The notes below the pieces were generated by a model. The model searched no databases. It was not told the DNA's origin and saw only the letters and a list, made by a program, of their open reading frames with translations. Shown one piece after another: positions 4,617-41,451 of a DNA stretch of 64,000 bases (its first letter is position 1; each line of letters opens with the position of its first letter). This stretch comes from Sphingobacteriales bacterium (lineage in GTDB: Bacteria; Bacteroidota; Bacteroidia; Chitinophagales; CAIOSU01): the NCBI GenBank assembly GCA_027483645.1, contig JAIXUD010000010.1:1-64000 (forward strand), read 5' to 3'. Both the position numbers and the translations under genes were made by a program.

Positions 4617-7600
4617 ATGGCTCAATCGCAAAATGCTCAGGAACGGATTAACTTTGGCCGAATAACCAAACACTCCGATTACCCTGATTTGCTGGAGATC
4701 CAATTGAAATCGTTTAAGGACTTTTTCCAATTGGAAACTACAGCCGAAAACAGGAAGGAAGAAGGACTATATAATGTATTCCAAGAAAACTTCCCCATCA
4801 GCGACGCCCGGAACATTTTCGTTCTGGAGTTCTTAGACTACTTTATCGACCCTCCGCGCTACACCATGGAGGAATGTATTGATAGGGGGTTGACCTATGC
4901 ATTGCCGCTCAAAGCCAAATTGCGCCTGTCGTGTAACGATGAGGAGCACGTCGATTTTGAGACTATTGTACAAGACGTATTTCTTGGCAACATTCCATAC
5001 ATGACCCCTAAGGGTACGTTTATTGTAAACGGCGCTGAGAGGATTATTGTATCTCAATTGCACCGTTCACCTGGTGTGTTTTTTGGCCAAAGCTTTCACC
5101 CGAACGGAACCAAGATTTATTCCGCACGGGTAATCCCGTTTAAGGGAGCTTGGATGGAGTTTGCCACCGATATCAATAACGTGATGTATGCGTACATTGA
5201 CCGTAAGAAGAAATTCCCGGTTACCACGTTGCTGCGCGCTATCGGTTTCGATAATGATAAAGACATCCTGCAATTGTTTGGCCTAGCCGATGAGCTGAAG
5301 CTGAACAAGAAAAACGTAGCATCGTTGGTAGGCCGCAAGCTTGCCGCAAGGGTGTTGCGTAGCTGGGTTGAGGATTTTGTGGATGAGGATACCGGTGAGG
5401 TGGTTTCTATCGAGCGTAACGAAGTTATTCTTGAGCGCGATACCATCCTTAACGAGGACAACATCCGCCAGGTAATGGATATGGACATCGACACTGTTAT
5501 TCTTCAGAAAGAAGAGATGAGTGCAGATTACTCCATTATCTACAACACGTTGCAAAAAGATACTTCTAACTCTGAGTTGGAAGCCGTGCAACATATCTAC
5601 CGCCAATTACGTGGTAGCGATCCACCGGATGACGAGACCGCGCGTGGCATTATCGAGAAGTTGTTCTTCAGCGATAAACGTTACGATTTGGGCGAAGTTG
5701 GCCGCTACAAAATCAACAAGAAGCTATTGCTGAATACCTCTGATGAGACCAAGGTTCTAACGAAGCAGGATATCATCGAGATTGTTAAGTACCTAGTTCG
5801 CTTGATTAACAGCAAAGCCGAGGTGGATGATATTGACCACTTGAGCAACCGCCGTGTACGTACCGTTGGCGAGCAGTTGTTTGCCCAGTTCGGTGTTGGT
5901 TTGGCCCGTATGGCGCGTACCATCCGCGAACGTATGAACGTGCGTGATAATGAGGTGTTTACCCCAATCGATTTGATCAACGCGAGGACTTTGTCTTCAG
6001 TTATCAACTCGTTCTTCGGTACCAGCCAGTTGTCACAGTTCTTGGATCAAACCAATCCGCTATCGGAAATCACCCACAAGCGTCGTATATCGGCCCTAGG
6101 GCCAGGCGGTTTGAGCCGTGAGCGTGCAGGCTTCGAAGTAAGGGACGTACACTATAGCCACTACGGTCGCTTGTGTACCATCGAAACTCCGGAAGGCCCG
6201 AACATCGGTTTGATAAGCACCCTTTGCGTACACGCTAAAGTGAACCGCATGGGCTTTATCGAAACTCCTTACCGCCCGGTAACGAACGGTATTGTTGATG
6301 TTGATGGTAGCCGTTATTTGTCAGCGGAAGAGGAGGATACCAACGTTATCGCACAGGCAAACGCCATAATCGATAAAAAAGGTAACTTCCTAAGCGACCG
6401 TATTAAGAGCCGTCACCATGGTGACTTCCCTATATCTACCGCCACTGAGCTTCAGTTCATGGATATTTCCCCTAACCAAATTGTGGGTGTATCTGCTTCC
6501 TTGATTCCTTTCTTGGAGAATGATGATGCAAACAGGGCTTTGATGGGATCGAACATGCAACGCCAGGCAGTGCCGTTGTTGGTGCCACAAGCACCTATCG
6601 TGGGTACTGGTTTGGAGAAAGTTGTAGCTACCGACTCTCGCTTGCTACTGAACGCCGAGCGCGCTGGTGTGGTGGAGTATGTAGATGCCGATACCATTAT
6701 CGTGAAATATGACTCAACCCCTGAGGAGGATTTGTTGAGCTTTGTGAGCAGTACCAAAACGTACAACCTTACCAAGTTTAAGAAAACCAACCAAGGTACC
6801 TGTATCAACTTGAAACCTATTGTTCGTAAAGGACAGGCGGTTAAGTTTGGCCAGTTGCTTTGCGAAGGATATGCTACTGATAATGGCGAGTTGGCCCTTG
6901 GCCGTAACTTGAAAGTGGCGTTCATGCCATGGAAAGGTTACAACTTCGAGGATGCTATCGTACTTTCGGAGCGTGTGGTAAAAGAGGACATCTTTACTTC
7001 GGTGCATATTGAAGAGTATGAGCTGGAAGTGCGTGATACCAAGCTTGGCGAAGAGGAACTGACTCCAGATATCCCTAACGTAAGCGAAGACGCAACCAAA
7101 GACCTTGATGAGCACGGTATTATCCGTATCGGTGCCCACATTAAGGAAGGCGATATCCTTATCGGTAAAATTACCCCTAAGGGCGAAACCGACCCAACAC
7201 CTGAGGAGAAGCTTTTGAGAGCTATCTTCGGTGACAAGGCCGGCGACGTAAAAGACGCAAGCTTGAAAGCACCTCCGAGCACCAAAGGCGTAGTTATCGA
7301 CAAGAAACTATTTGCCCGTGCCAAGAAGGACAAAACAGCTAAAACCCGTGAAAAGGTACAGTTGGATAAGCTGGAAGGCGAGCACAAGAAAGCTAAAGAA
7401 GCGGTAATTGATACCCTTGTTGACAAACTTTCGAAAGTGCTTAAGGATAAATCTTCTGCAGGCGTGATAAACGTTTATAAAGAGGAAGTGGTGCCTAAAG
7501 GCGTGAAATACAGCCAAAAACTGTTGAAAGACCTTGATTACGATAACATCGACTTCAACAACTGGACGAAGGACGAAGATGTGAATAGCGACGTTAAAGC

Positions 7601-8423
7601 CGTGTTGCACAACTTTAAACTACGCTTGAGCGAAGAAGTAGGCCGTTACAAGCGCGAGAAATTCAACATCAGCATTGGCGATGAGCTACCTGCTGGCGTA
7701 TTGAAACTTGCGAAGGTTTATTTGGCTAAAAAACGTAAGCTGAAAGTAGGTGATAAATTGGCAGGTCGCCACGGTAACAAGGGTATTGTAGCCCGTATCG
7801 TTCGTGACGAGGATATGCCATTCCTAGAAGACGGCACCCCGGTGGATATCGTATTGAATCCACTTGGTGTACCTTCAAGGATGAACCTTGGACAGATTTA
7901 CGAGACCGTATTGGGCTGGGCCGGTCAAAAAATGGGTGTTAAATATGGCACTCCAATCTTTGACGGAGCAACGCTTGATCAGATTGAAGAAGAAGTACAA
8001 AAAGCTGGTCTTCCATCGTACGGACAAACATACCTGTACGACGGCGAAACAGGCGACCGTTTCCACCAGAAGGCTACTGTAGGTGTTATCTACATGCTGA
8101 AACTGGCACACATGGTGGACGACAAGATGCACGCACGTTCAATCGGACCATACTCACTTATCACTCAACAGCCGCTTGGCGGTAAGGCCCAATTCGGTGG
8201 CCAGCGTTTGGGTGAGATGGAAGTGTGGGCACTCGAGGCCTACGGTGCTGCGAACATCTTGCAGGAGTTGCTTACCATTAAGTCGGATGATATTGTGGGC
8301 CGTGCAAAAGCCTACGAAGCCATCGTTAAAGGTGACAACCTTCCTCGCCCGGGCATCCCAGAATCATTCAACGTGTTAGTACACGAGTTGCGTGGTTTGG
8401 GCTTGGAGCTCAGTTTTGAATAA
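4617..8423 (+). CDS. rpoB: DNA-directed RNA polymerase subunit beta
   Basis: 1268 aa with conserved beta-subunit motifs ([22 protein letters not shown]). Confidence 0.99.
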
Positions 8424-8455
8424 TATTAGGTTAACCTCATTTCAAAGGAGTTGAT

Positions 8456-11400
8456 ATGCCTTTAGTAAAGGATAAAAAAGCAACCAATACCTTTAACAAA
8501 ATCATCATAAGCCTAGCGTCTCCAGATAGTATTCTGGAGCGCTCTTATGGTGAAGTGTTGAAGCCTGAAACCATCAACTACCGTACTTATAAACCAGAGC
8601 GCGACGGCCTTTTTTGCGAACGCATTTTCGGCCCGGTGAAGGATTATGAGTGCTATTGCGGTAAGTACAAGCGTATCCGTTATAAGGGTATTGTGTGCGA
8701 CCGTTGCGGTGTTGAGGTAACAGAAAAGAAAGTACGCCGTGAGCGCATGGGCCACATCAAGTTGGTGGTGCCTGTGGTGCACATTTGGTACTTCAAATCA
8801 TTGCCAAACAAGATTGGTTATTTGCTCGGCATTTCATCCAAGAAGCTGGAAACTATTGTTTATTATGAGCGATATGTGGTAATTCAGCCGGGTGTTGCTG
8901 CCGCTTACGAAGACCAGAAAGGTACCCCAATAGAGTACTTGTCATTGCTTTCGGAAGAAGAATACTTGGATACCTTGGACAAATTGCCTCCAGGAAACCA
9001 AGTATTGGATGACAACGACCCAAACAAATTCATCGCTAAAATGGGCGCAGATGCTATCCGCGACCTATTGGCCCGTATCGAGCTTGACGAGTTGTCATAC
9101 AGCCTTCGTCACCAAGCTGCCAACGAGACCTCACAACAGCGTAAAGCTGAGGCCTTGAAGCGCTTGAGCGTAGTAGAAGCTTTCCGTGATGCCAATGGCC
9201 GCATAGAAAACAAGCCTGAGTGGATGGTAATTCAATACCTTCCAGTGATACCACCAGAGTTGCGCCCGTTGGTGCCGCTTGATGGTGGCCGTTTCGCCAG
9301 CTCGGATTTGAACGATCTTTACCGTCGGGTAATTATCCGTAACAACCGCTTGAAGCGCCTTATCGAGATTAAAGCGCCTGAAGTGATTTTGCGTAACGAG
9401 AAACGCATGTTGCAAGAAGCTGTTGACTCCTTGTTCGACAACAGCCGCAAATCCAATGCCGTGAAGGCTGAGGGTGGCCGCGCGCTGAAATCGTTGAGCG
9501 ACGTGTTGAAAGGTAAGCAAGGTCGTTTCCGTCAGAACTTGTTGGGTAAACGTGTCGATTACTCTGGCCGTTCGGTTATTGTGGTTGGCCCTACTTTGAA
9601 ATTGCACGAGTGCGGTCTTCCAAAAGACATGGCAGCCGAGCTTTTCAAGCCGTTTGTTATCCGTAAGTTGATTGAGCGCGGTATTGTTAAGACTGTAAAA
9701 TCTGCCAAAAAATTGGTTGACCGCAAGGAGCCAGTAATTTGGGAGATACTAGAAAATATCCTGAAAGGTCACCCAGTATTGTTGAACAGGGCACCAACGC
9801 TTCACAGGTTGTCAATGCAATCATTCCAGCCTAAGCTGATTGAGGGCAAGGCCATCCAGTTGCACCCATTGGTATGTTCTGGTTTCAACGCCGACTTTGA
9901 CGGTGACCAAATGGCAGTGCACGTTCCGTTGAGCAACGCTGCTATCTTGGAAGCCCAAATGTTAATGTTGTCTTCGCACAACATCTTGAACCCGCAGAAC
10001 GGTGATCCAGTTACCCTTCCTTCTCAGGACATGGTATTGGGCCTTTATTATATGACTAAAGGCCGCCGCACTACCGAAACTGAAAAGGTTCGTGGTGAAG
10101 GCAAAACGTTCTATTCCAACGAGGAAGTTATTATTGCCTACAATGAAGGCCGTATTGACATGCACGCTTGGATTAAAGTGCGCGTTACGATTAAGAGCGA
10201 AACCAGCACTAAACTTGAATCAAGGATTATAGAAACTACTGTAGGCCGTATACTCTTCAATGAAGTGGTACCACCTGAAGTAGGATATATGAACGTGTTG
10301 CTTACCAAAAAAGCATTGCGTGTTGTAATCTCTACTATCGTTCGTGAAACGGATGTACCTCGTACCGCTGCTTTCTTGGATGATATTAAGGACCTAGGTT
10401 TCCGTTGGGCATTCCGCGGTGGTCTATCGTTCAACCTTGCGGATTTGATTGTACCGAAAGAGAAAACTCCATTGCTGGATAAAGCCCAGTTGGAAGTGGA
10501 CGAAGTTTGGGACAACTACCAAATGGGTTTGATTACCAACAACGAGCGTTATAACCAAACGATTGACATCTGGACACGTGCGAACACCCGCTTGACGGAA
10601 GTAACACTACACCAGTTGGCTACCGACCGCCAAGGTTTTAACTCTGTGTTCATGATGCTTGACTCAGGCGCAAGGGGCTCGAAAGAGCAGATTCGCCAGT
10701 TGAGCGGTATGAGGGGTTTGATGGCCAAGCCGCGTAAATCGGGCAGCACCGGTTCAGAGATTATCGAGAACCCAATTCTATCGAACTTGAAAGAAGGTCT
10801 GTCGGTATTGGAGTACTTTATCTCTACCCACGGTGCCCGTAAAGGTTTGGCTGATACAGCTTTGAAAACCGCTGATGCGGGTTACCTAACCCGCCGTTTG
10901 GTGGACGTAGCCCAAGATGTGGTAATTACTGAAGAAGATTGCGGCACATTGCGTGGTATTGCTATCGCTGCGTTGAAAGACAACGAGGATATAGTAGAGC
11001 CATTGACTGACCGTATTTTTGGCCGCGTAAGCTTGCACGATGTACAGCACCCGCTTACCGGTGAGATATTGGTGAAAGCCGGTGAAGAAATTTCTGACTT
11101 GATTGCGCAGCAAATTGATGGTACTGCTATCGACGTTGTGGAGATTCGCTCGGTGCTAACCTGCGAAACCAAACAAGGTGTTTGTGTGAAGTGTTATGGT
11201 CGTCACTTGGCCAACAACCGTATGGCGCAAGCCGGTGATGCCGTGGGCATTATTGGTGCACAGTCAATCGGTGAGCCAGGTACACAGTTGACACTACGTA
11301 CCTTCCACGTGGGTGGTACCGCATCCAACATCGCTACAGAGTCTCAATTGGTTGCCAAGTTTGATGGCGTGATTGAGTTCGATAGCATCCGCTCTATTGA

Positions 11401-26674: not shown

Positions 26675-26746
26675 CTGGAGGGATAACGGTGGTTGTTTAC
26701 TCGCTTTGGAAGCGAGTGGTCGCAGGTTCAAATCCTGCCCTCCAGA
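26675..26746 (+). tRNA. tRNA-Pro (anticodon TGG)
   Basis: C1-G72 acceptor ctggagg/cctccag, anticodon arm ctcgc-tttggaa-gcgag, T-arm gcagg-ttcaaat-cctgc. Confidence 0.75.
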
Positions 26747-26924
26747 CAAAAACTCCTAACCAACAAGTTGAGGAGGAAAGAGCTTGCTTGTGGCACCACT
26801 GGCGCTAGTGGTTGGTGGTGTGCAAACGGGAGTGGTTGAAGCCCACGGTTCCGACACTAAGCAGGAACAACGTTCGAAAAAGCCCATTTGACGGCCAACG
26901 GGCAAGCTCTTTCAAAGCATAACA

Positions 26925-26996
26925 GGAACCGTAGTTCAGCGGTAGAATCCCCGACTGTCTATCGGGTGGTCACGGGTTCGAATCCCGTCGGTTCCG
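26925..26996 (+). tRNA. tRNA-Asp (anticodon GTC)
   Basis: ggaaccg/cggttcc acceptor, anticodon arm cccga-ctgtcta-tcggg, T-arm acggg-ttcgaat-cccgt. Confidence 0.85.
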
Positions 26997-27000
26997 CTTT

Positions 27001-27096
27001 AGGCCTGTAGCCCAACGGCAGAGGCACCAGATTTAGGATCTGGACAGTGTGGGTTCGAACGGCGAAGCCCTCGTGCCAACACTCCCACCAGGCCCA
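27001..27096 (+). ncRNA. tRNA-like gene (anticodon TAG, class-I shape) with a 23-nt T-loop insertion
   Basis: Acceptor aggcctg/caggccc, anticodon arm ccaga-tttagga-tctgg, 5-nt variable loop, T-stem gtggg...cccac. The T-loop ttcgaac is followed by the insert ggcgaagccctcgtgccaacact, sharing its first 12 nt with the 26480 element. Confidence 0.55.
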
Positions 27097-27104
27097 CAAA
27101 TTAT

Positions 27105-27177
27105 TGGATGGTAGTTCAATTGGAAAGAGCATCGGGCTACGAACCCGAAGATGCAGGTTCGACTCCTGCCCATCCAA
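27105..27177 (+). tRNA. tRNA-Arg (anticodon ACG)
   Basis: Acceptor tggatgg/ccatcca, D-arm gttc-aattggaaa-gagc, anticodon arm tcggg-ctacgaa-cccga, T-arm gcagg-ttcgact-cctgc. Confidence 0.8.
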
Positions 27178-27188
27178 CTAACAAAAAG

Positions 27189-27403
27189 GGCGTCATTGCG
27201 AAGGCCTACTAGGTCTTGCAGTTCGAGCTAAACTTTAATGGCCTGAAGCAATCCCCCGACGAGGGGAGTGAATCGCATAGACCACTAAAGTGATGGTATT
27301 ATGTACTTGGTTCTGCGGTAAGCACAAACTATGCTCCGTAGCAGGGGATTGCTTCGTCGTTCAATTGCGCGAAAGGCGCAAATTGACTCCTCGCAATGAC
27401 GGC
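27189..27403 (+). ncRNA. Unclassified highly structured RNA candidate (about 215 nt) embedded in the tRNA array
   Basis: Closing helix gcgtcattgcgaagg / cctcgcaatgacggc. Nested helices gaagcaatcccc / ggggattgcttc and gcatag / ctatgc. Hairpins tcccccgacgagggga and ttgcgc-gaaag-gcgcaa. Confidence 0.45.
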
Positions 27404-27427
27404 TAGGGATTGGAGGTGATGTTAAAT

Positions 27428-27499
27428 TGTCTGGTGGTCTAATGGTTAGGATACTTCGTTTTGGAAGAAGTGGTGGTGGTTCGAATCCATCCCGGACAA
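27428..27499 (+). tRNA. tRNA-Gln (anticodon TTG)
   Basis: U1-A72 acceptor tgtctgg/ccggaca, anticodon loop ttTTGga, T-arm ggtgg-ttcgaat-ccatc, 4-nt variable loop. Confidence 0.7.
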
Positions 27500-27539
27500 C
27501 AAAAAATGAAAAAGTTGAAAATAAATTTTACTGCGCAAC

Positions 27540-27577
27540 AACGCTGCGCACCAGCGTTTCAACTTTGACATATTGTT
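27540..27577 (+). promoter_or_regulatory. Operator-promoter motif copy 2
   Basis: tACTGCGCAacaacgCTGCGCAccagcgtttcaACTTTG; spacing identical to copies 1 and 3. Confidence 0.6.
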
Positions 27578-27590
27578 ATTTGAAATCAAT

Positions 27591-27790
27591 ACTCCTCTAG
27601 CTTAAAAGGAAGAGCTGTGGTAAAAGTTACGGAACCATGTAGTGCCGGGATGATGCCTATAGAATCTCGCATTTTATAGGCTAGAATTTGCAGATGCACC
27701 GAAACACCGCTCTATAGAAGTGTAGTAGGGAAGCGCATTTATAGCCCGGCTGCCCTCGCGGGAGTCTCGGTTCGAGTCCGGGGAGGAGTG
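27591..27790 (+). ncRNA. 200-nt tRNA-like RNA with acceptor stem and canonical T-arm but about 150 nt replacing the anticodon region
   Basis: 5' actcctc pairs with 3' gaggagt. T-arm ctcgg-ttcgagt-ccggg sits directly before the 3' acceptor strand, and an agct...agct D-like stem follows the 5' strand. Internal helices include gcctata/tataggc and gccggg/cccggc. Begins about 15 nt after motif copy 2. Confidence 0.45.
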
Positions 27791-27796
27791 CGATTA

Positions 27797-27867
27797 GCAC
27801 CAGTAGCTTAATGGCAAAGCCCCTGTTTACCAAACAGGCAACGCAGGTTCGATTCCTGCTTGGTGCT
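27797..27867 (+). tRNA. tRNA with atypical anticodon ACC (Gly-like), 4-nt variable loop
   Basis: Acceptor gcaccag/ttggtgc, D-arm gctt-aatggca-aagc, anticodon arm cctgt-ttACCaa-acagg, T-arm gcagg-ttcgatt-cctgc. An A34 anticodon is unusual in bacteria outside Arg. Confidence 0.55.
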
Positions 27868-28005
27868 CAGTTAATGGTCGATTTGTGTAAGACCTGATCA
27901 GGGTTTCAAAATGGCCCGGTAGTGTTGCCACGCCCTGCGTTGCAATATGCTGCTTATCATTTTGGCATTAACTACCATGCTGTTTTTTGAAACAGTTTTG
28001 GAAGC

Positions 28006-34878: not shown

Positions 34879-35889
34879 ATGAGTACTACAAATAGAACAA
34901 AACTGGGCAGCCAAGGGCTGGAAGTACCCCTGCAAGGCCTTGGCTGCATGGGCATGACCACGATTGCTGGCGGTAATGTATACGGCCAAGCCGATGAACA
35001 GGAATCCATAGCCACCATACACCGCGCTCTAGAGTTGGGCATCAACTTTTTAGACACCGCCGACCTATACGGCCCGCTGCTGAATGAACGCCTGATTGCG
35101 AAAGCCATTAAGGGCAACCGCGAGAAGTACACCATCGCCACTAAGTTTGGCTTTGAGGTGGATGATAACGAGCAGCTTACTTGGGCCATCAACGGCAACC
35201 CGGAGTATGTTCGCAAAGCCGTGGAGCGCTCCCTAAAAAATCTCGGCACCGATTATATTGACCTTTATTATCTGCATAGGCAAGACCCTAACGTGCCAAT
35301 TGAAGATACGGTAGGGGCAATGGCCGATATGGTGAAAGAAGGCAAAGTGAAGTACATCGGATTATCAGAAGTGTCGCCAGAAACGATACGTAAGGCACAT
35401 GCTATACATCCGCTTACCGCCGTGCAAACAGAGTACTCGCTCTTCGAGCGTGAGCCTGAAGCCAATGGGGTAATAGAGGTATTGAAGGAGCTGGGCATTG
35501 GCTTTATCGCTTACTCGCCGCTGGGCAGGGGCTTTATTACCGGCGAACTGAAAAGCCCGGATGATTTCGCCGAAAATGATTTCCGCCGAGGCATTCCGCG
35601 CTTTCAAGGCGAGAACTTTTACAAGAACCTTGACTTGCTGAAACAGATACAAACCTTGGCAGCAAAAAAAGGCATCTCTGCTGGCCAATTAGCCTTGGCT
35701 TGGGTGATAGCCCAAGGCGCTGTGCCCATCCCTGGTACCAAGCGTGTGAGCCGCATTGAGGAAAACGCCGCAGCAAGCAACGTGGTATTTACCGCCGAAG
35801 AAAAAGCATCTTTGGAGTCCATCATACCCGTTGGCATTACCGCCGGCAACCGCTACGATGAGTGGGGTATGGGTTTAGTGAATCAGTAA
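34879..35889 (+). CDS. Aldo/keto reductase
   Basis: 336 aa; AKR motifs (LGCMGM, IDLYYLHRQD, IGLSEV). Confidence 0.85.
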   Translation: MSTTNRTKLGSQGLEVPLQGLGCMGMTTIAGGNVYGQADEQESIATIHRALELGINFLDTADLYGPLLNERLIAKAIKGNREKYTIATKFGFEVDDNEQLTWAINGNPEYVRKAVERSLKNLGTDYIDLYYLHRQDPNVPIEDTVGAMADMVKEGKVKYIGLSEVSPETIRKAHAIHPLTAVQTEYSLFEREPEANGVIEVLKELGIGFIAYSPLGRGFITGELKSPDDFAENDFRRGIPRFQGENFYKNLDLLKQIQTLAAKKGISAGQLALAWVIAQGAVPIPGTKRVSRIEENAAASNVVFTAEEKASLESIIPVGITAGNRYDEWGMGLVNQ

Positions 35890-35917
35890 GCGGTTTGTTG
35901 ATAATATTTTTTGGAAA

Positions 35918-35950
35918 GAAGGACGGCTGTGAGGTCGTCCTTTTTTTATG
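35918..35950 (+). terminator. Rho-independent terminator
   Basis: aaggacg-gctgtgag-gtcgtcc followed by ttttttt. Confidence 0.75.
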
Positions 35951-35999: not shown

Positions 36000-36821
36000 T
36001 TAGAACAGTAGCCCTTGAGAAATATGTTTTGGATGGAAAGTTCCTATTATTACAAAAGGATTAAGTGCTTTCCGTCTATGAAACTCAAGAGTAGTACCTA
36101 AGTAAAAATGTAAATCCTTTGTTTTGGCAAAATCCTCGAAATATTTCTTCCTTACCATTTCACATGCTTTTGCCTCATTTCCATTTGCACGGTAAAAACA
36201 ACTCCAAAACAGTTGACCAACTTCCCAATCTTCAATCATCAAAGTACTTCTGGTATTTGTTTCATCTTCGAAAGTAAACGAAAATTTATAAGGCAGTTTT
36301 CTTACAATTTCTAACCGATTATTGTCTTGTACATTTTCAAACAGGTTGATTTGCTTTAGTGATTCGAGTTTGTCTGCAGACCAATCTCTTTCAACTTCTT
36401 CCCAACTAAAATCTATAATTTTTGTAGGCTTAAAGACAGCTAACGAGGTCGTGATATTTGTATCAAGGGATTCGGCAATAAGCGCTTTCAAATTTCGATG
36501 GATTGTTTTCAACACTATTTTCCTTCGATCATGCCAAGCGTCTCCATCAGCAGCAATATCACTTAAAACTTTGATTTTTGCCTCATGAGAAGCTGGGCGG
36601 AAACTTTCGGGTCGAAAATCTTTTTCATTTTTAACCAAATCAATTTCTATCCATTGGTATTTCTTGTACTGCTCATGATAAGGGCGTTTTCTAAACTGAA
36701 TAGGGTAAATTCTAATCCAGCTTCCATCCTCTCGAAACCCAGCAGTACAAACTAATTCTGAATGTTTTTTTGAAATAGTAGGATAGGTTTTTACCGTAAT
36801 TAAAACCTTAGTTAGCGTCAT
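36000..36821 (-). CDS. Hypothetical protein, translationally coupled partner of the Panacea-DUF488 gene (candidate toxin/effector)
   Basis: 273 aa, no recognisable domain. Shares one nucleotide (36821) with the upstream gene. AT-rich relative to flanks. Confidence 0.5.
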   Translation of the reverse strand: MTLTKVLITVKTYPTISKKHSELVCTAGFREDGSWIRIYPIQFRKRPYHEQYKKYQWIEIDLVKNEKDFRPESFRPASHEAKIKVLSDIAADGDAWHDRRKIVLKTIHRNLKALIAESLDTNITTSLAVFKPTKIIDFSWEEVERDWSADKLESLKQINLFENVQDNNRLEIVRKLPYKFSFTFEDETNTRSTLMIEDWEVGQLFWSCFYRANGNEAKACEMVRKKYFEDFAKTKDLHFYLGTTLEFHRRKALNPFVIIGTFHPKHISQGLLF

Positions 36822-37723
36822 TAAATATGCTTTATCTCATAATTAAACCCAGGTAGGTTTCCTATTGATTCAGCTAAAGGTTTGCGATGACATTGGCAAA
36901 TATTCGCTTCAAAACAAGTTATTGCTACCCTATTGTACTTATGTAGCAAGTTTAATATTTTTTCTTGGAATTCTGTTGTGTTTTTTAAACTTTCATTTTT
37001 ATACCCTTCAAAAAGAGTATCATAGTCTTGTTGGGTACTTAATGTCTGCCTTTCATCAGAATTAATTCCAAGCTCTGGTATATGAATAAACTTAATTCCT
37101 ACACCTTCACAAGCGTTCAACAATTGTGATTTGCTAAACCCATATTTCATGCTGAATGAGTTTTTCCTAACATCACAAAGCACCTTTACGTCATTTCGTA
37201 TTAGCTTATTTAAATAAGATTCCAATGAAAGGCCCTCATATCCAATAGTAAAAAGGACTTTTTCATTCGATGTTGGTCGGAGGGAATTAACTTTCGCTAT
37301 TTCTTCTACATTCAATACTTGACTAAGTATTGTACTATTGATTGCGTAGTATGGATAGCGTTTATAGGTTAATTTTACTAAGTCGGTACCTGTTTTTGCT
37401 TTGTAATAAATTTTAATATCCGACAAGTGTTTTTGATCTTCCTTCTTTAATCCCCTTATATAGTCCAATGGGTCAGTTTTTACCCAACCTTGTTCAGTTT
37501 CCTGAACTTGTCCATATTTAGTCATCGTACCCAAATCGGCGTTAGCTTGAAAAGAATAACATCCGAATTTATATGGCACAAAATGGTATGAAGGCTCCTT
37601 CTGACCATTTGATAAAAGGAAAAGCAGCTTTTGCAATTGTACCTTTTCAAGCTTGTTGTCAAATGCTTGTAAAAGGGCTAAAAGTACTTTTCTTCTGTAA
37701 AACATTATGTAAAGATACTTCAT
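36821..37723 (-). CDS. Panacea (DUF4065)-like N-terminal domain fused to C-terminal DUF488 domain
   Basis: N-terminus LEKVQLQKLLFLLS...FVPYKFGCYS resembles the DUF4065/Panacea core (L-KLQKLLY...W-YGPV). C-terminus has DUF488 hallmarks TIGYEG and C-x5-CHR (ITCFEANICQCHRKP). Confidence 0.55.
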   Translation of the reverse strand: MKYLYIMFYRRKVLLALLQAFDNKLEKVQLQKLLFLLSNGQKEPSYHFVPYKFGCYSFQANADLGTMTKYGQVQETEQGWVKTDPLDYIRGLKKEDQKHLSDIKIYYKAKTGTDLVKLTYKRYPYYAINSTILSQVLNVEEIAKVNSLRPTSNEKVLFTIGYEGLSLESYLNKLIRNDVKVLCDVRKNSFSMKYGFSKSQLLNACEGVGIKFIHIPELGINSDERQTLSTQQDYDTLFEGYKNESLKNTTEFQEKILNLLHKYNRVAITCFEANICQCHRKPLAESIGNLPGFNYEIKHI

Positions 37724-37850
37724 GAATCCATGAAAGTCTAAATCAATATCCCCAATATGTTAACATGGTTGTACCAAAGGCTGGTCAAATGTCATTTTAT
37801 TCAGTAGAGGTTGATTCAGTTTTTCCAGTAACCAACCAACCAATAACTAA

Positions 37851-38013
37851 TCACCCCTTCTTAGGGCATTTCTTGCACGACTCGTTGCCTTTCTTTTTGT
37901 ACTTCTGGCAGCACTCTTTTTTGACCACACAGCAACAGCTCGCACATGGCGATAACCTGCTTCGGCTCTAGGAGCTCTTCTATAACTTGCTGACGAACTA
38001 AGATTTGTTTCAT
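37851..38013 (-). pseudogene. Cys/Lys-rich small-peptide gene, copy 1, frameshifted in an A-run relative to copy 2
   Basis: Frame 0 gives MKQILVRQQVIEELLEPKQVIAMCELLLCG; a +1 shift in the A6 run is needed to read the conserved tail KKECCQKYKKKGNESCKKCPKKG. About 80% nt identity to 40959-41120, with substitutions mostly at third codon positions. Confidence 0.45.
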
Positions 38014-38207
38014 GTATCAAGATTGGTGGGCTTACAAAAACGCAAAAATAGGAGTTAGGTCGGATTGTTTGATACAGTGAATGCCCTGTCTTTAATACTT
38101 TGCCCACTTTATATTAGCAGCGAATAGGTACTCTTGCTAATGCCGCTTGCTTATATCGCCTTTTCTGAAATTTTTCATACATTTACGCCCCTCAACTATT
38201 TACTACT

Positions 38208-39924: not shown

Positions 39925-40701
39925 TTATCCCATACCCTTTGCATCAATTATAGCAAAGCTCTTTTCGCCTATTGATAGAAAATATCCATTCGGTAAGCCT
40001 ACCAACCCTGGTGCATAATGGCTAAACATGGTTACGGTATCTGTAGTCCTATTCCAACAAAAGAAATCTGTTTTGTGATGGTAGCTGGCGTGAAAGAAGA
40101 TTTGATTGGCGTTACTTGAAATTGCAGAGGCACCAACAAAGGCTTCAGGAGTATCGGTGCCAGTAACTTCAAAAGTATCCAAATTTAATTCATACAAAAT
40201 GAAATCGGTATAGGTATATAACAGCACACGGTTTGTACCATGCTTGCACATGCAATAGCAGTCCAAAACATAAGGTTGTTTGTAAGTATCGTTTAATCCG
40301 AATAGTAGCTTCCCGTCCAAGTCAAAAACCGCCACTCCACTATTGTTAGGGCCAGTCATCCCCATTACGCCTTCATCAAAATAGCTTACTACAATTTTGT
40401 TGCGATGCACCAAAACATCTTGCACACCGTCGCCGACAAGGAAAGAGTACAATAATTGCCCTTCCAAGTTAAAAACATGCGCATTCTCTGGTCCCTTTGT
40501 ACGGGCGGCAATCACTAAGATACGGTGGTCTTCTAATCTTCTAATAATCGGAAATGTGATAGCAAATGGTAACTTAACATGACCGTAATTGCTAAATACA
40601 TTTAGCTCATTCGTCAAGGCTAAATAGTTACCTGCAATATCGGAATCAACATCCAATAATGTTTCGATACCAATATCGAGATCAAAAACAGTAACTTCCA
40701 T
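39925..40701 (-). CDS. Hypothetical protein
   Basis: 258 aa, repetitive beta-rich composition, no recognisable motif. Confidence 0.45.
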   Translation of the reverse strand: MEVTVFDLDIGIETLLDVDSDIAGNYLALTNELNVFSNYGHVKLPFAITFPIIRRLEDHRILVIAARTKGPENAHVFNLEGQLLYSFLVGDGVQDVLVHRNKIVVSYFDEGVMGMTGPNNSGVAVFDLDGKLLFGLNDTYKQPYVLDCYCMCKHGTNRVLLYTYTDFILYELNLDTFEVTGTDTPEAFVGASAISSNANQIFFHASYHHKTDFFCWNRTTDTVTMFSHYAPGLVGLPNGYFLSIGEKSFAIIDAKGMG

Positions 40702-40831: not shown

Positions 40832-40958
40832 ATAATCGTAACAGCATCACTATATCGCCCGAAGGTCCCTCGTGAAAAACTCGGGATGACAAAACGTGTT
40901 AAGCCTTATTAATAACCAACCGTGGACCATCGACTGTGGGCCGTCAACCAATAACAAT

Positions 40959-41120
40959 CTATCCCTTTTTCGGGCATTTCTTGCAAGGCTCTTTGCCTTT
41001 CTTCTTGTACTTCTGGCAGCATTCCTTTTTGGCGCACTGCAACAACTCGCACATGGAGATGCCTTGCTTCGGCTCTGGGAGGCCTTCTATAATCTGCTGT
41101 CGTACTAAGGTTTGGTTCAT
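40959..41120 (-). CDS. Cys/Lys-rich small peptide (53 aa), copy 2 (intact)
   Basis: MNQTLVRQQIIEGLPEPKQGISMCELLQCAKKECCQKYKKKGKEPCKKCPKKG. Paralogous to 37851-38013, with conservation biased to codon positions 1 and 2. Confidence 0.5.
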   Translation of the reverse strand: MNQTLVRQQIIEGLPEPKQGISMCELLQCAKKECCQKYKKKGKEPCKKCPKKG

Positions 41121-41451
41121 GTGGAAAGAATGATGATAACTCTTCGCAAAACTATACCTTGTTTAGACGCAATCCAAATAACTTTACACTCCATTTTGGC
41201 TTTCACCTGTTTAGGTGAGGGTTTGGAAAGCACAAGAAATCGATGGCATTTTTTTGCACACAATGAACATTCATTTTGTGGGGAACTAATGGGTTCATTT
41301 CTTGTAATCGGTAAAGATGAAGTGTAACTTGAAATCACATTTCGGGTCTATACCAAGGAATGATTCATCCAATATTTACGTTGAAAATAAGCTAGCCATG
41401 TTGAAAGATGCCGACACCTTGGTGGTAACCGCCGCCGAAACCACCAGTACT

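Follow-up and report, generated by a model that had tools for sequence, protein, structure and literature searches.

Two adjacent genes on the minus strand, here called A and B, form an AT-rich island within the 64,000-nucleotide stretch of DNA that we analysed (the window; Table 1). Both ORFs are intact, and the GC content of the pair is 0.34, compared with 0.466 for the remainder of the window; over positions 36000–37800 it is 0.32–0.36, against approximately 0.50 in the immediate flanks. These values agree with the preliminary description of this DNA, which had recognized a two-gene AT-rich island here and had placed it just after the terminator of an AKR gene. Consistent with that placement, we found a hairpin with a U-run in the 110 nt between the end of the AKR gene and the island. 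The hairpin terminates the convergent AKR gene, and its minus-strand version, which is weaker (−9.1 kcal/mol, z = −2.65), could also end the A–B transcript. The translational coupling of A to B that had been proposed was likewise evident, as base 36821 is common to the TAA stop of A and the ATG of B, giving a 1-nt overlap.

Table 1. Features of the A–B locus in window coordinates
Feature	Position	Strand	Description
Gene A	36821–37723	−	300-aa ORF; two-domain protein; match to PADLOC PDC-M19A
A N-terminal domain	37274–37705	−	Approximately residues 7–150; helical/winged-helix; like the DarG C-terminal (DarT-binding) domain; remote Panacea/DUF4065 relative
A C-terminal DUF488	36869–37225	−	Pfam match to residues 167–285; domain extends to approximately residue 300; PTP/rhodanese-phosphatase-like fold
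A–B stop/start overlap	36819–36823	−	TAATG; couples A to B; read from sequence
Gene B	36000–36821	−	273 aa; match to PADLOC PDC-M19B; predicted dual OB-fold nucleic-acid binder
B N-terminal half (predicted OB fold)	36447–36821	−	Approximately residues 1–125; most family-invariant residues lie here
B C-terminal half	36027–36446	−	Approximately residues 126–265; beta1-beta2-beta3-helices-beta4-beta5; invariant D198-W199-E200
Hairpin and U-run	35914–35947	+	Terminator of the convergent AKR gene; folding energy −21.6 kcal/mol, z = −4.3

A and B are genuine genes rather than chance ORFs, because homologues of each form more than 7,000 clusters at 90% identity and because the pairing of the two, with A upstream of and overlapping B, is conserved in 78 of the 80 genomic loci that we fetched. 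The genes adjoining the pair in the window are metabolic or transport genes. A repeat of approximately 190 nt upstream of A (37837–38028, with a second copy at 40945–41135) was considered as part of the module and rejected; it is a paralogous small ORF, frameshifted here, that is not found beside A–B elsewhere. A sigma-70 promoter scan returned 5 sites against 7.8 expected by chance and is uninformative for what is probably a Bacteroidota genome. Looking up strains with an identical AKR gene and no island yielded short contigs only.

Public sources gave no names for the exact A and B proteins. By profile matching, however, the pair is already catalogued. A matches PADLOC PDC-M19A (PDLC04505) with E = 1.6e-126, residues 7–300 aligning to positions 1–294 of a 294-position profile, and B matches PDC-M19B (PDLC04508) with E = 1.5e-119, residues 1–270 aligning to positions 1–266 of 269. 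The two proteins thus match their models end to end and lie adjacent, as the candidate system requires, with no difference from PDC-M19 at the sequence level. This fits the earlier label of a candidate defence or toxin–antitoxin (TA) module. By contrast, the suggestion that an architecture joining Panacea to DUF488 was undescribed did not hold, as both PADLOC-DB and PHROGs contain models for A and for B; the paper on Panacea does not mention DUF488 in its main text (PMC8832971). PDC-M19 is an unpublished and unvalidated defence candidate, and membership therefore tells nothing about function. Searches of the literature for PDC-M19, DUF488-N3 and DuOB found nothing relevant, and no experiment on PDC-M19.

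Domains of the two proteins

In almost all homologues of A, the first residue corresponds to M7; the true start of A is therefore probably at 37705, giving a protein of 294 aa. The AF2 model of A has a pLDDT of 90.5, and the motifs LQKLLFLL, VPYKFG, TIGYEG and CFEANICQCHR are all found in the protein. That A ends in a DUF488 domain, as previously proposed, was clear from a match to PF04343 of 76.5 bits against a gathering cutoff of 22.2 (E = 3.5e-21) and from the family motifs kept in A (TIGYEG, DVR, SMKYGF and CFE...CHR). T159–G164, D184–R186, C270/E272 and C278-H279-R280 are invariant in 37 homologues, numbered with the window protein as the reference row. A scored 18.6 bits against PF22751 (DUF488-N3a), under the cutoff of 27, and all 37 relatives gave weak matches to this model (best E = 2.2e-7). 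DUF488 itself is without a nucleic-acid-binding domain, and we found no experimental function for it in the searchable literature.

The N-terminal domain had been described as Panacea (PF13274; SocA, DUF4065). A direct Pfam assignment failed, as the Pfam HMM did not match the window protein even at E ≤ 10, and we retained Panacea only as a remote relationship. In 15 of the 37 relatives of A, PF13274 gave matches that were collinear but sub-threshold, the best reaching 16.2 bits (cutoff 25.7) and so falling short of the gathering threshold. The domain also has the fold common to the C-terminal domain of DarG, and matches of DarG HMMs to A are limited to the C-terminal-domain region of those models. 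DUF4065/Panacea has been reported to be homologous to this DarG domain (PMC13621843). Together, the collinear matches and the link through DarG suggest that A carries a remote Panacea relative of the toxin-binding type found at the DarG C terminus, for which binding is a prediction. Toxin neutralization is the sole known role of Panacea (PMC8832971). In five Bacteroidota loci, the Panacea-like domain is split off or truncated, with DUF488 and B intact. Gordonia phage gp44, which occupies the position of A, was considered as its counterpart and rejected, having no similarity to the N-terminal domain of A.

The view that B has no recognizable domain stood as far as profiles are concerned, as we found no domain in Pfam or NCBIfam, but not at the level of structure. 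B models (AF2, pLDDT 81.9) as a probable tandem OB fold like those of telomere-end proteins, RPA and other ssDNA binders. Foldseek aligned the whole of B to the tandem-OB proteins CTC1, Teb1-AB, RPA70 and POT1 (E = 0.003–0.25), and proteins of this telomere-end/RPA type (POT1, TEBP-alpha, Teb1, CTC1 and RPA70) were its best fold matches, some of them full-length. The N-terminal fold contains the invariant residues P14, G28, R37, D68 and R70, together with further residues of the family (C25-T26-A27, R44, K54, W57, E72, S73, W96 and R99); the predicted topology of the C-terminal half is consistent with a second OB fold. We found no recognizable catalytic or toxin fold in B, the fold matches being OB folds. 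A staphylococcal-nuclease-like ‘D-x-R-P-E’ motif, considered as a sign of a catalytic fold, and a DnaQ-like ‘D-W-E’ exonuclease motif were both rejected. The modelled fold suggests that B binds ssDNA or DNA ends. When sequence profiles of the two proteins were searched against the PDB, nothing meaningful emerged (glutaredoxin at E = 0.84, EncC at E = 1.2).

At E ≤ 1e-3, the family of B takes in 2,451 representative clusters (at least 2,451 at 50% identity); it is spread over at least 572 species genomes and has no Pfam model. B itself does not match PF22557 (DuOB, Dual OB-containing domain). A set of 80 diverse relatives of B matched 31 families, and DuOB is missing from the 25 of these that were listed. 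A distant homologue, gp43 of Gordonia phage Nymphadora, matched DuOB weakly (18.6 bits against a cutoff of 27).

Pairing of B with DUF488-clade enzymes on a mobile cassette

Our principal new finding is a comparative one, namely that B goes with a DUF488-clade enzyme in several phyla and in phages and plasmids. Such an enzyme adjoins B in Bacteroidota, Actinomycetota, Pseudomonadota and Cyanobacteriota, as well as in phages and on plasmids. The partner may be A-like, a stand-alone DUF488 protein of 140–230 aa in any orientation, as in many lineages, or, in one case, a member of the sister family DUF4326 in place of DUF488. Because the partner takes all of these forms, the Panacea-like domain is a lineage-specific add-on and not the core of the pair. 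For the same reason, the core logic put forward in the preliminary description, a Panacea antitoxin that neutralizes an arbitrary novel toxin, has to be given up: Panacea has many unrelated toxins as partners, but the constant partner of B is a DUF488-clade enzyme even without a Panacea-like domain. The pairing is obligate. B homologues lying mostly partnerless in housekeeping contexts, a pattern that would have spoken against the module, were not what we found, because B homologues without a partner are essentially never seen.

In 77 of 78 homologous loci, the A–B junction measures between −4 and +11 nt. With its small co-directional genes overlapping and the A-type gene first, the window pair has a type II TA layout; distant relatives with convergent genes do not. 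In Actinomycetota and Pseudomonadota, A-type and B-type genes are often convergent and not co-transcribed, some of them with overlapping 3′ ends. Among the 150 best representatives of B, none exceeds 330 aa and none is fused to DUF488. Prophage regions contain orphan A-like genes that lack B. In Sulfolobus pSOG2, the gene after B is not DUF488 and encodes a protein with a candidate PD-(D/E)xK-like motif and no PDB sequence match.

The AT-rich island is a real, horizontally mobile two-gene cassette. The GC content of the pair is more than 3 points under that of the flanks in 35 of 63 loci and higher in 1 of 63, and is otherwise similar. Its neighbours vary across loci, and all-against-all clustering of 244 of them revealed no conserved third gene, with no cluster larger than 7 proteins (6 loci). 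Defence or mobile-element genes figure among the neighbours (ResIII, type IIG/III R-M, Drt2, IetA, AbiEi, CapP and integrases), as do, in some loci, other small TA pairs; many loci are flanked by plain housekeeping genes. Lysogeny modules of prophages carry the pair, as do conjugative or mobilizable plasmids of many phyla. On true phage contigs, it lies in the head-morphogenesis module, by Mu-F-like/LPD3 proteins and a DNA methyltransferase, and in Gordonia phages it lies in the lysogeny-expressed region, the usual place of prophage defence genes. The window holds one more, apparently intact, copy of this widespread cassette.

Among known systems, the pair resembles DarTG in that A has a domain of the DarG C-terminal type. 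It differs in that the toxin DarT is a DUF4433 ADP-ribosyltransferase, whereas B has no DUF4433/ART domain and is predicted to have OB folds instead; the DarTG antitoxin has a macrodomain or NADAR, whereas the enzyme of A is DUF488. Compared with DarTG, the domain order in A is reversed, and the A–B gene order is antidote first. The likeness to PanA/PanT lies in the N-terminal domain, a probable remote relative, and in the position of A upstream of and overlapping its partner, but A falls under the Pfam threshold. For the RapZ-C–DUF488–DUF4326 clade, the likeness consists of the intact DUF488 motifs and weak DUF488-N3a similarity of A, the pairing of B-type proteins with DUF488 or DUF4326, and the weak DuOB match of the distant B homologue; the sub-cutoff N3a score of A and the lack of a DuOB match in B set the pair apart.

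Possible modes of action

We tentatively prefer a mechanism in which A and B form a DarTG-like effector and antidote acting on ssDNA or DNA ends. The island would then be a conflict module of the PDC-M19 family, acquired horizontally and complete in its two genes; B, as its predicted fold suggests, would grip single-stranded DNA or DNA ends and A would be its bifunctional partner. DUF488, a putative cysteine-containing phosphatase-fold enzyme of the rhodanese-phosphatase superfamily, may act on a terminal phosphate or sugar-phosphate of the same nucleic acid, or on the product of B. The DarG-C/Panacea-like domain would dock on B and, by analogy with DarG, fill its ssDNA-binding groove as a DNA mimic; because the predicted OB folds of B are of the ssDNA/telomere-end type, an ssDNA-mimic domain would have a natural docking site. 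The module might run like DarTG or a restriction–modification pair. Free B would be harmful, capping or occupying ssDNA or DNA ends and thereby stalling replication, and A would serve as the antidote, both by restraining B directly and by enzymatically reversing or preventing its effect. Phage infection or loss of the element could deplete or titrate A and release B, leading to abortive infection, a replication block or addiction. The domain identities, the obligate pairing, the mobility and the wide distribution are results of the present analysis; DNA binding by B, the contact between A and B, the chemistry of DUF488, the toxicity and any anti-phage effect are inferred.

Several observations argue for an effector and its antidote. 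They include the full-length PADLOC matches, the DarG link of the N-terminal domain, the AT-richness of the pair and its variable neighbours, some of them defence or mobile-element genes, as well as its presence in prophages and on plasmids. The order A then B, in 78 of 80 loci, matches an antitoxin-then-toxin layout, and no B–DUF488 fusion was found among the best 150 representatives. The exchange of DUF488 for DUF4326 parallels the swapping of macro and NADAR erasers in DarT systems (PMC9503650), and the orphan A-like genes, as expected for antidotes, compare with the orphan DarG-like genes that phages carry (PMC11825919). By contrast, if B only binds DNA, there is nothing obvious for a phosphatase-fold ‘eraser’ to remove, many lineages do without the Panacea-like domain, convergent genes in Actinomycetota and Pseudomonadota are atypical for type II TA operons, and PDC-M19 is unvalidated, with plain housekeeping genes at many of its flanks.

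A close rival, which we regard as possible, is that the two proteins cooperate as a two-subunit machine for processing or modifying nucleic-acid ends. B would target ssDNA or DNA termini, and DUF488 or DUF4326 would catalyse the removal, addition or transfer of a terminal phosphate or sugar-phosphate. Bacteria would use this activity to disable DNA that invades them, and a phage might use it to protect or mark the ends of its own genome. The DarG-C/Panacea-like domain of Bacteroidota would serve as a tether or as an auto-inhibitory plug, not as an antitoxin. Adjacency across phyla in every orientation, with or without the N-terminal domain, is what one typically sees for subunits with a common substrate, and DUF488 is without a nucleic-acid-binding domain, just as B is without a catalytic fold. 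A position among phage head-morphogenesis genes is typical of injected or DNA-protecting accessory proteins, and the candidate PD-(D/E)xK-like motif of the pSOG2 partner would point the same way. In 2023, Burroughs and Aravind reportedly predicted DNA-end processing roles in conflict systems for the RapZ-C/DUF488/DUF4326 clade. DUF4326 has, furthermore, been proposed to process terminal phosphates on ribose (PMC9503650). However, the sole characterized relatives of the N-terminal domain, DarG-C and Panacea, neutralize toxins; cooperating subunits commonly fuse, yet B and DUF488 are not fused in the top 150 representatives; A-like genes exist without B; and convergent pairs whose 3′ ends overlap point to co-expression of an antagonistic kind, not a stoichiometric one.

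Carriage on conjugative or mobilizable plasmids of many phyla and in prophages, together with the compact overlapping layout, the small TA pairs nearby and the many chromosomal copies amid housekeeping genes, would also suit a pure addiction module that stabilizes plasmids, prophages and genomic islands through post-segregational killing and has no anti-phage function. We consider this improbable, given the PADLOC listing as a defence candidate, the R-M/Drt/AbiE/CBASS-type neighbourhoods of some loci and the Gordonia phage copies in the usual seat of prophage defence genes; addiction and defence are, moreover, compatible rather than mutually exclusive. It would be very surprising if A and B were ordinary accessory genes of DNA/RNA repair or nucleotide metabolism with no role in conflict. 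Although DUF488 proteins (E. coli YeaO, for example) occur widely and mostly outside defence contexts, and the window neighbours are metabolic or transport genes, the patchy distribution, AT-richness relative to the host, ever-changing neighbours, presence on phages and plasmids and antitoxin-type domain in A all argue against it.

Going beyond the effector and antidote that we prefer, A and B might together be an immunity or addiction system of a new type that targets DNA and has no classical toxin fold, in which a telomere-end-binding-like dual-OB protein caps ssDNA or the DNA termini of replicating (phage) DNA, DUF488 writes or erases a terminal phosphate or sugar-phosphate mark and, in Bacteroidota, a DarG-type ssDNA mimic is the built-in inhibitor. 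We think this rather unlikely. If DNA-end capping were confirmed, it would give a first biochemical function to the large orphan family DUF488 and to DUF4326, and ‘DNA-end capping/processing’ would join the known mechanisms of defence. For the window itself, the result is modest. DUF488 is a very large family, and the tie between B and DUF488 across phyla, phages and plasmids, with the DarG/Panacea-type fusion in Bacteroidota, turns a bare PDC-M19 entry into a concrete, testable hypothesis of a conflict system directed at ssDNA or DNA ends. Tractable experimental systems include lysogens of Gordonia terrae that carry phage Nymphadora (gp42 to gp44), plasmid pRL8 of Rhizobium johnstonii 3841, and Pseudomonas and Arthrobacter plasmids.

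The A–B pair in the window

Gene A, which joins an N-terminal DarG-C/Panacea-like domain to a C-terminal DUF488 domain, and gene B, whose product has a predicted dual OB fold, are a real and intact pair. The preliminary description had placed both minus-strand ORFs exactly, and the one-nucleotide overlap that it described is seen as TAATG, with base 36821 common to the TAA stop of A and the ATG of B. Because the position of M7 is the start in nearly all A homologues, A probably begins at 37705 and encodes 294 amino acids. The AT-rich island is borne out: GC content is 0.32–0.36 across 36000–37800 and approximately 0.50 in both flanks, and the pair averages 0.34 versus 0.466 in the remainder of the window. 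Ahead of it, as described, is the terminator of AKR, a strong hairpin with a U-run that is weaker when folded as the minus strand.

The label of candidate toxin–antitoxin or defence module was fair, but the family is already listed in PADLOC: HMMs PDC-M19A and PDC-M19B of PADLOC-DB v2 match A (E = 1.6e-126) and B (E = 1.5e-119) end to end. Judged by these profile matches, the pair belongs to the catalogued candidate family PDC-M19. PDC-M45B and PDC-M45C also match the DUF488 domain of A, and PHROGs holds families of unknown function for both proteins. The PDC entries are 'phage defence candidates' that have been neither published nor validated, and our literature search found no paper mentioning PDC-M19.

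Features of the window around the A–B pair
Feature	Position	Strand	Remarks
Gene A	36821-37723	-	ORF, 300 aa
Gene B	36000-36821	-	ORF, 273 aa
AKR gene	34879-35889	+	convergent with B
Hairpin and U-run between AKR and B	35914-35947	+	fold -21.6 kcal/mol, z = -4.3
Small ORFs in repeat copies	37861-38013 and 40959-41120	-	
258-aa ORF	39925-40701	-	lower GC (~0.40); no annotation; preceded by second repeat copy
tRNA-Gly, anticodon ACC	27797-27868	+	ARAGORN

Domains of the two proteins

Database searches established the domain identities of the pair. As proposed earlier, the C terminus of A is DUF488 (residues 167–285; Pfam E = 3.5e-21, score 76.5 bits, cutoff 22.2), and its enzyme is probably active; the family motifs TIGYEG, DVR-N, SMKYGF, H-P-G, CFE and CHR are invariant in 37 A homologues (58–65% identity). 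The Panacea assignment of the N-terminal domain is reasonable as remote homology, not as family membership. A Pfam search gave no PF13274 match in the A of the window even at E ≤ 10, but 15 of the 37 homologues match weakly (best 16.2 bits, E = 0.02) and collinearly with this domain, for example residues 26–117 against profile positions 3–109 of 113. DarG models from NCBIfam and PADLOC match residues ~9–109 (E ~1e-4, far below curated cutoffs) through the portion corresponding to the DarG C-terminal domain, the inhibitor domain to which DUF4065 proteins are reported to be homologous (2026 paper, PMC13621843). The AlphaFold model of A is confident (pLDDT 90.5).

B lacks a recognisable domain, as first described: it matched nothing in Pfam, NCBIfam or PDB sequences, and no Pfam match was consistent among 80 diverse relatives. 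Its family is nonetheless large: clustering at 90% identity gives more than 7,779 clusters, and 2,451 of the 50%-identity representatives have E ≤ 1e-3, almost all of them stand-alone proteins of ~270 amino acids. Across 80 representatives (33–50% identity), P14, G28, R37, D68, R70 and W199 are invariant, and residues at least 90% conserved include S17, E22, C25-T26-A27, R44, K54, W57, E72, S73, W96, R99, S126, D198, E200 and T243. In Foldseek searches with the model (pLDDT 81.9), B aligned over its full length to the tandem-OB proteins CTC1, Teb1-AB, RPA70 and POT1, at weak E-values (0.003–0.25); the C-terminal half, modelled in the order beta1-beta2-beta3-helices-beta4-beta5, is what we infer to be a second OB fold. 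Independently of this comparison, gp43 of Gordonia phage Nymphadora, a distant B homologue (30% identity), weakly matches PF22557 DuOB, 'Dual OB-containing domain'. B is thus most likely a dual-OB nucleic-acid-binding protein, and the acidic and polar residues that are invariant in it would also be compatible with catalysis or a partner interface.

Pairing and mobility of the cassette

A scan for close relatives of B, with one genome per species, identified them in at least 572 genomes; 80 loci, overwhelmingly from Bacteroidota, were retrieved for neighbourhood analysis. An A homologue lies directly upstream of B on the same strand in 78, the contig ending at B in the other two, and the junction spans −4 to +11 nt in 77 of the 78, with a 49-nt gap in one. 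No conserved third gene was found across these neighbourhoods. Immediate neighbours mix housekeeping genes with some genes of defence systems or mobile elements (ResIII, type IIG/III R-M, Drt2, IetA, AbiEi, CapP, PDC-S19 and integrases). Of 63 loci, 35 have a pair more than 3 points AT-richer than its flanks, and one has a GC-richer pair. The N-terminal domain is split off or truncated in five Bacteroidota loci that keep DUF488 and B intact. In L053 (5115–5998) and L080 (5095–5989), A occurs as separate N-domain and DUF488 ORFs upstream of intact B, which could reflect a genuine gene split, a frameshift or misassembly of the MAG.

Distant B relatives still adjoin a DUF488-clade enzyme, and often no DarG-C/Panacea-like domain is present. 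The pairing of B with this clade is near-obligate, a DUF488-clade gene flanking B in nearly every locus examined, and the Panacea-like domain is accessory; the Panacea-centred logic of the preliminary description therefore missed the conserved core. Stand-alone DUF488 proteins (140–230 amino acids) flank B on viral (L099, L104–L106, L108) and metagenomic (L114, L116) contigs, downstream on Fischerella and Calothrix plasmids and upstream on a Sulfitobacter plasmid. On other plasmids the two genes are convergent, 8 nt apart in Rhizobium johnstonii (pRL8) and with overlapping 3′ ends in Streptomyces canus, Pseudomonas and Arthrobacter. One locus (L101, 7908–9217) has no DUF488 neighbour; its B homologue is followed by a 118-aa protein of the sister family DUF4326 (E = 1.7e-21), which takes DUF488's place. 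An archaeal B homologue (29% identical) on Sulfolobus islandicus plasmid pSOG2 (L160, 2492–3852) overlaps a downstream 168-aa ORF with no DUF488 signal or PDB sequence match; this ORF carries an 'EIDLV...FEMKL' pattern putatively reminiscent of PD-(D/E)xK nucleases.

The cassette is mobile. On metagenomic phage contigs, DUF488 and B are surrounded by Mu-like head genes and have a DNA methyltransferase gene next to them; in L099 and L105 (IMG/VR, ~5000–11300) the insertion comprises stand-alone DUF488, B and an N6/N4 DNA methyltransferase, and is flanked on one side by a Mu-F-like/LPD3 head-morphogenesis gene and on the other by the scaffold and major-capsid genes of Mu-like phages. In Nymphadora (L120, NC_031061.1, 2021–4268), gp42, annotated 'HipA toxin', is actually a stand-alone DUF488 (PF04343, E = 1.2e-29) convergent with gp43; gp43 in turn overlaps gp44, whose HTH product carries the annotation immunity repressor. 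In this phage and relatives, gp42/gp43 lie in the lysogeny module beside integrase, repressor and Cro genes. Because gp42–gp44 all sit in that module, they may form a system that the prophage expresses, in a host that can be cultured. In five prophage-like loci no B lies within 4 kb of the full A-like gene, which adjoins a canonical SSB gene and small TA pairs of the classical kind. The full-length orphans (DarG-C-like plus DUF488) of L129 (3256–4885) and L135 (3255–4885), 43–45% identical, are divergent from the SSB gene, and small HigB/HigA-like or BrnT/BrnA-like pairs come after them; L135 has an altered CxC-HR motif, CFEENVSTCHR. The single copy in the window is ordinary; the family opens a direct way to assign a function, for the first time, to DUF488 and to a dual-OB family that lacks a model.

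Models of function

All biochemistry in what follows is what we infer. Our tentative preference is an effector–antidote logic like that of DarTG or R-M systems. B would bind ssDNA or DNA ends and be harmful when unrestrained; A would hold it in check with the DarG-C-like domain, which would sit in the OB groove as a mimic of ssDNA, and may also counter it through a reaction of DUF488 on the same substrate. In favour of this model, A has a layout that parallels that of DarG, its N-terminal relatives DarG-C and Panacea are known only as neutralisers, the antidote gene comes first, and the exchange of DUF488 for DUF4326 is similar to the swapping of macro and NADAR erasers. A-like genes also occur as orphans, and no B–DUF488 fusion was seen among the 150 best representatives. 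However, B has no catalytic fold, the N-terminal domain is dispensable and convergent arrangements exist.

A close rival, which we consider somewhat less probable, is a cooperative complex in which B would target DNA termini for DUF488-catalysed end processing, with the N-terminal domain as tether or auto-inhibitor. It fits the phylum-wide adjacency of B and DUF488 irrespective of orientation, and DNA-end processing has reportedly been predicted for a DUF488-containing enzyme clade. Beside the effector–antidote logic, a pure addiction module with no defence role seems unlikely, and a housekeeping role very improbable.

Other features of the window

Two ~80% identical copies of a small gene (37837–38028 and 40945–41135) encode a peptide of ~53 aa whose tail is rich in Cys and Lys (...CELLQCAKKECCQKYKKKGKEPCKKCPKKG). 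Each precedes same-strand AT-rich gene(s), A–B in one case and the 258-aa ORF, which may be another acquired gene, in the other. The copy upstream of A is frameshifted by a 1-nt insertion, and the small gene was not found adjoining A–B in other genomes. The tRNA-Gly gene, whose ACC anticodon is unusual for bacteria, closes a cluster of five tRNA genes (Pro, Asp, Arg, Gln, Gly; 26675–27868).
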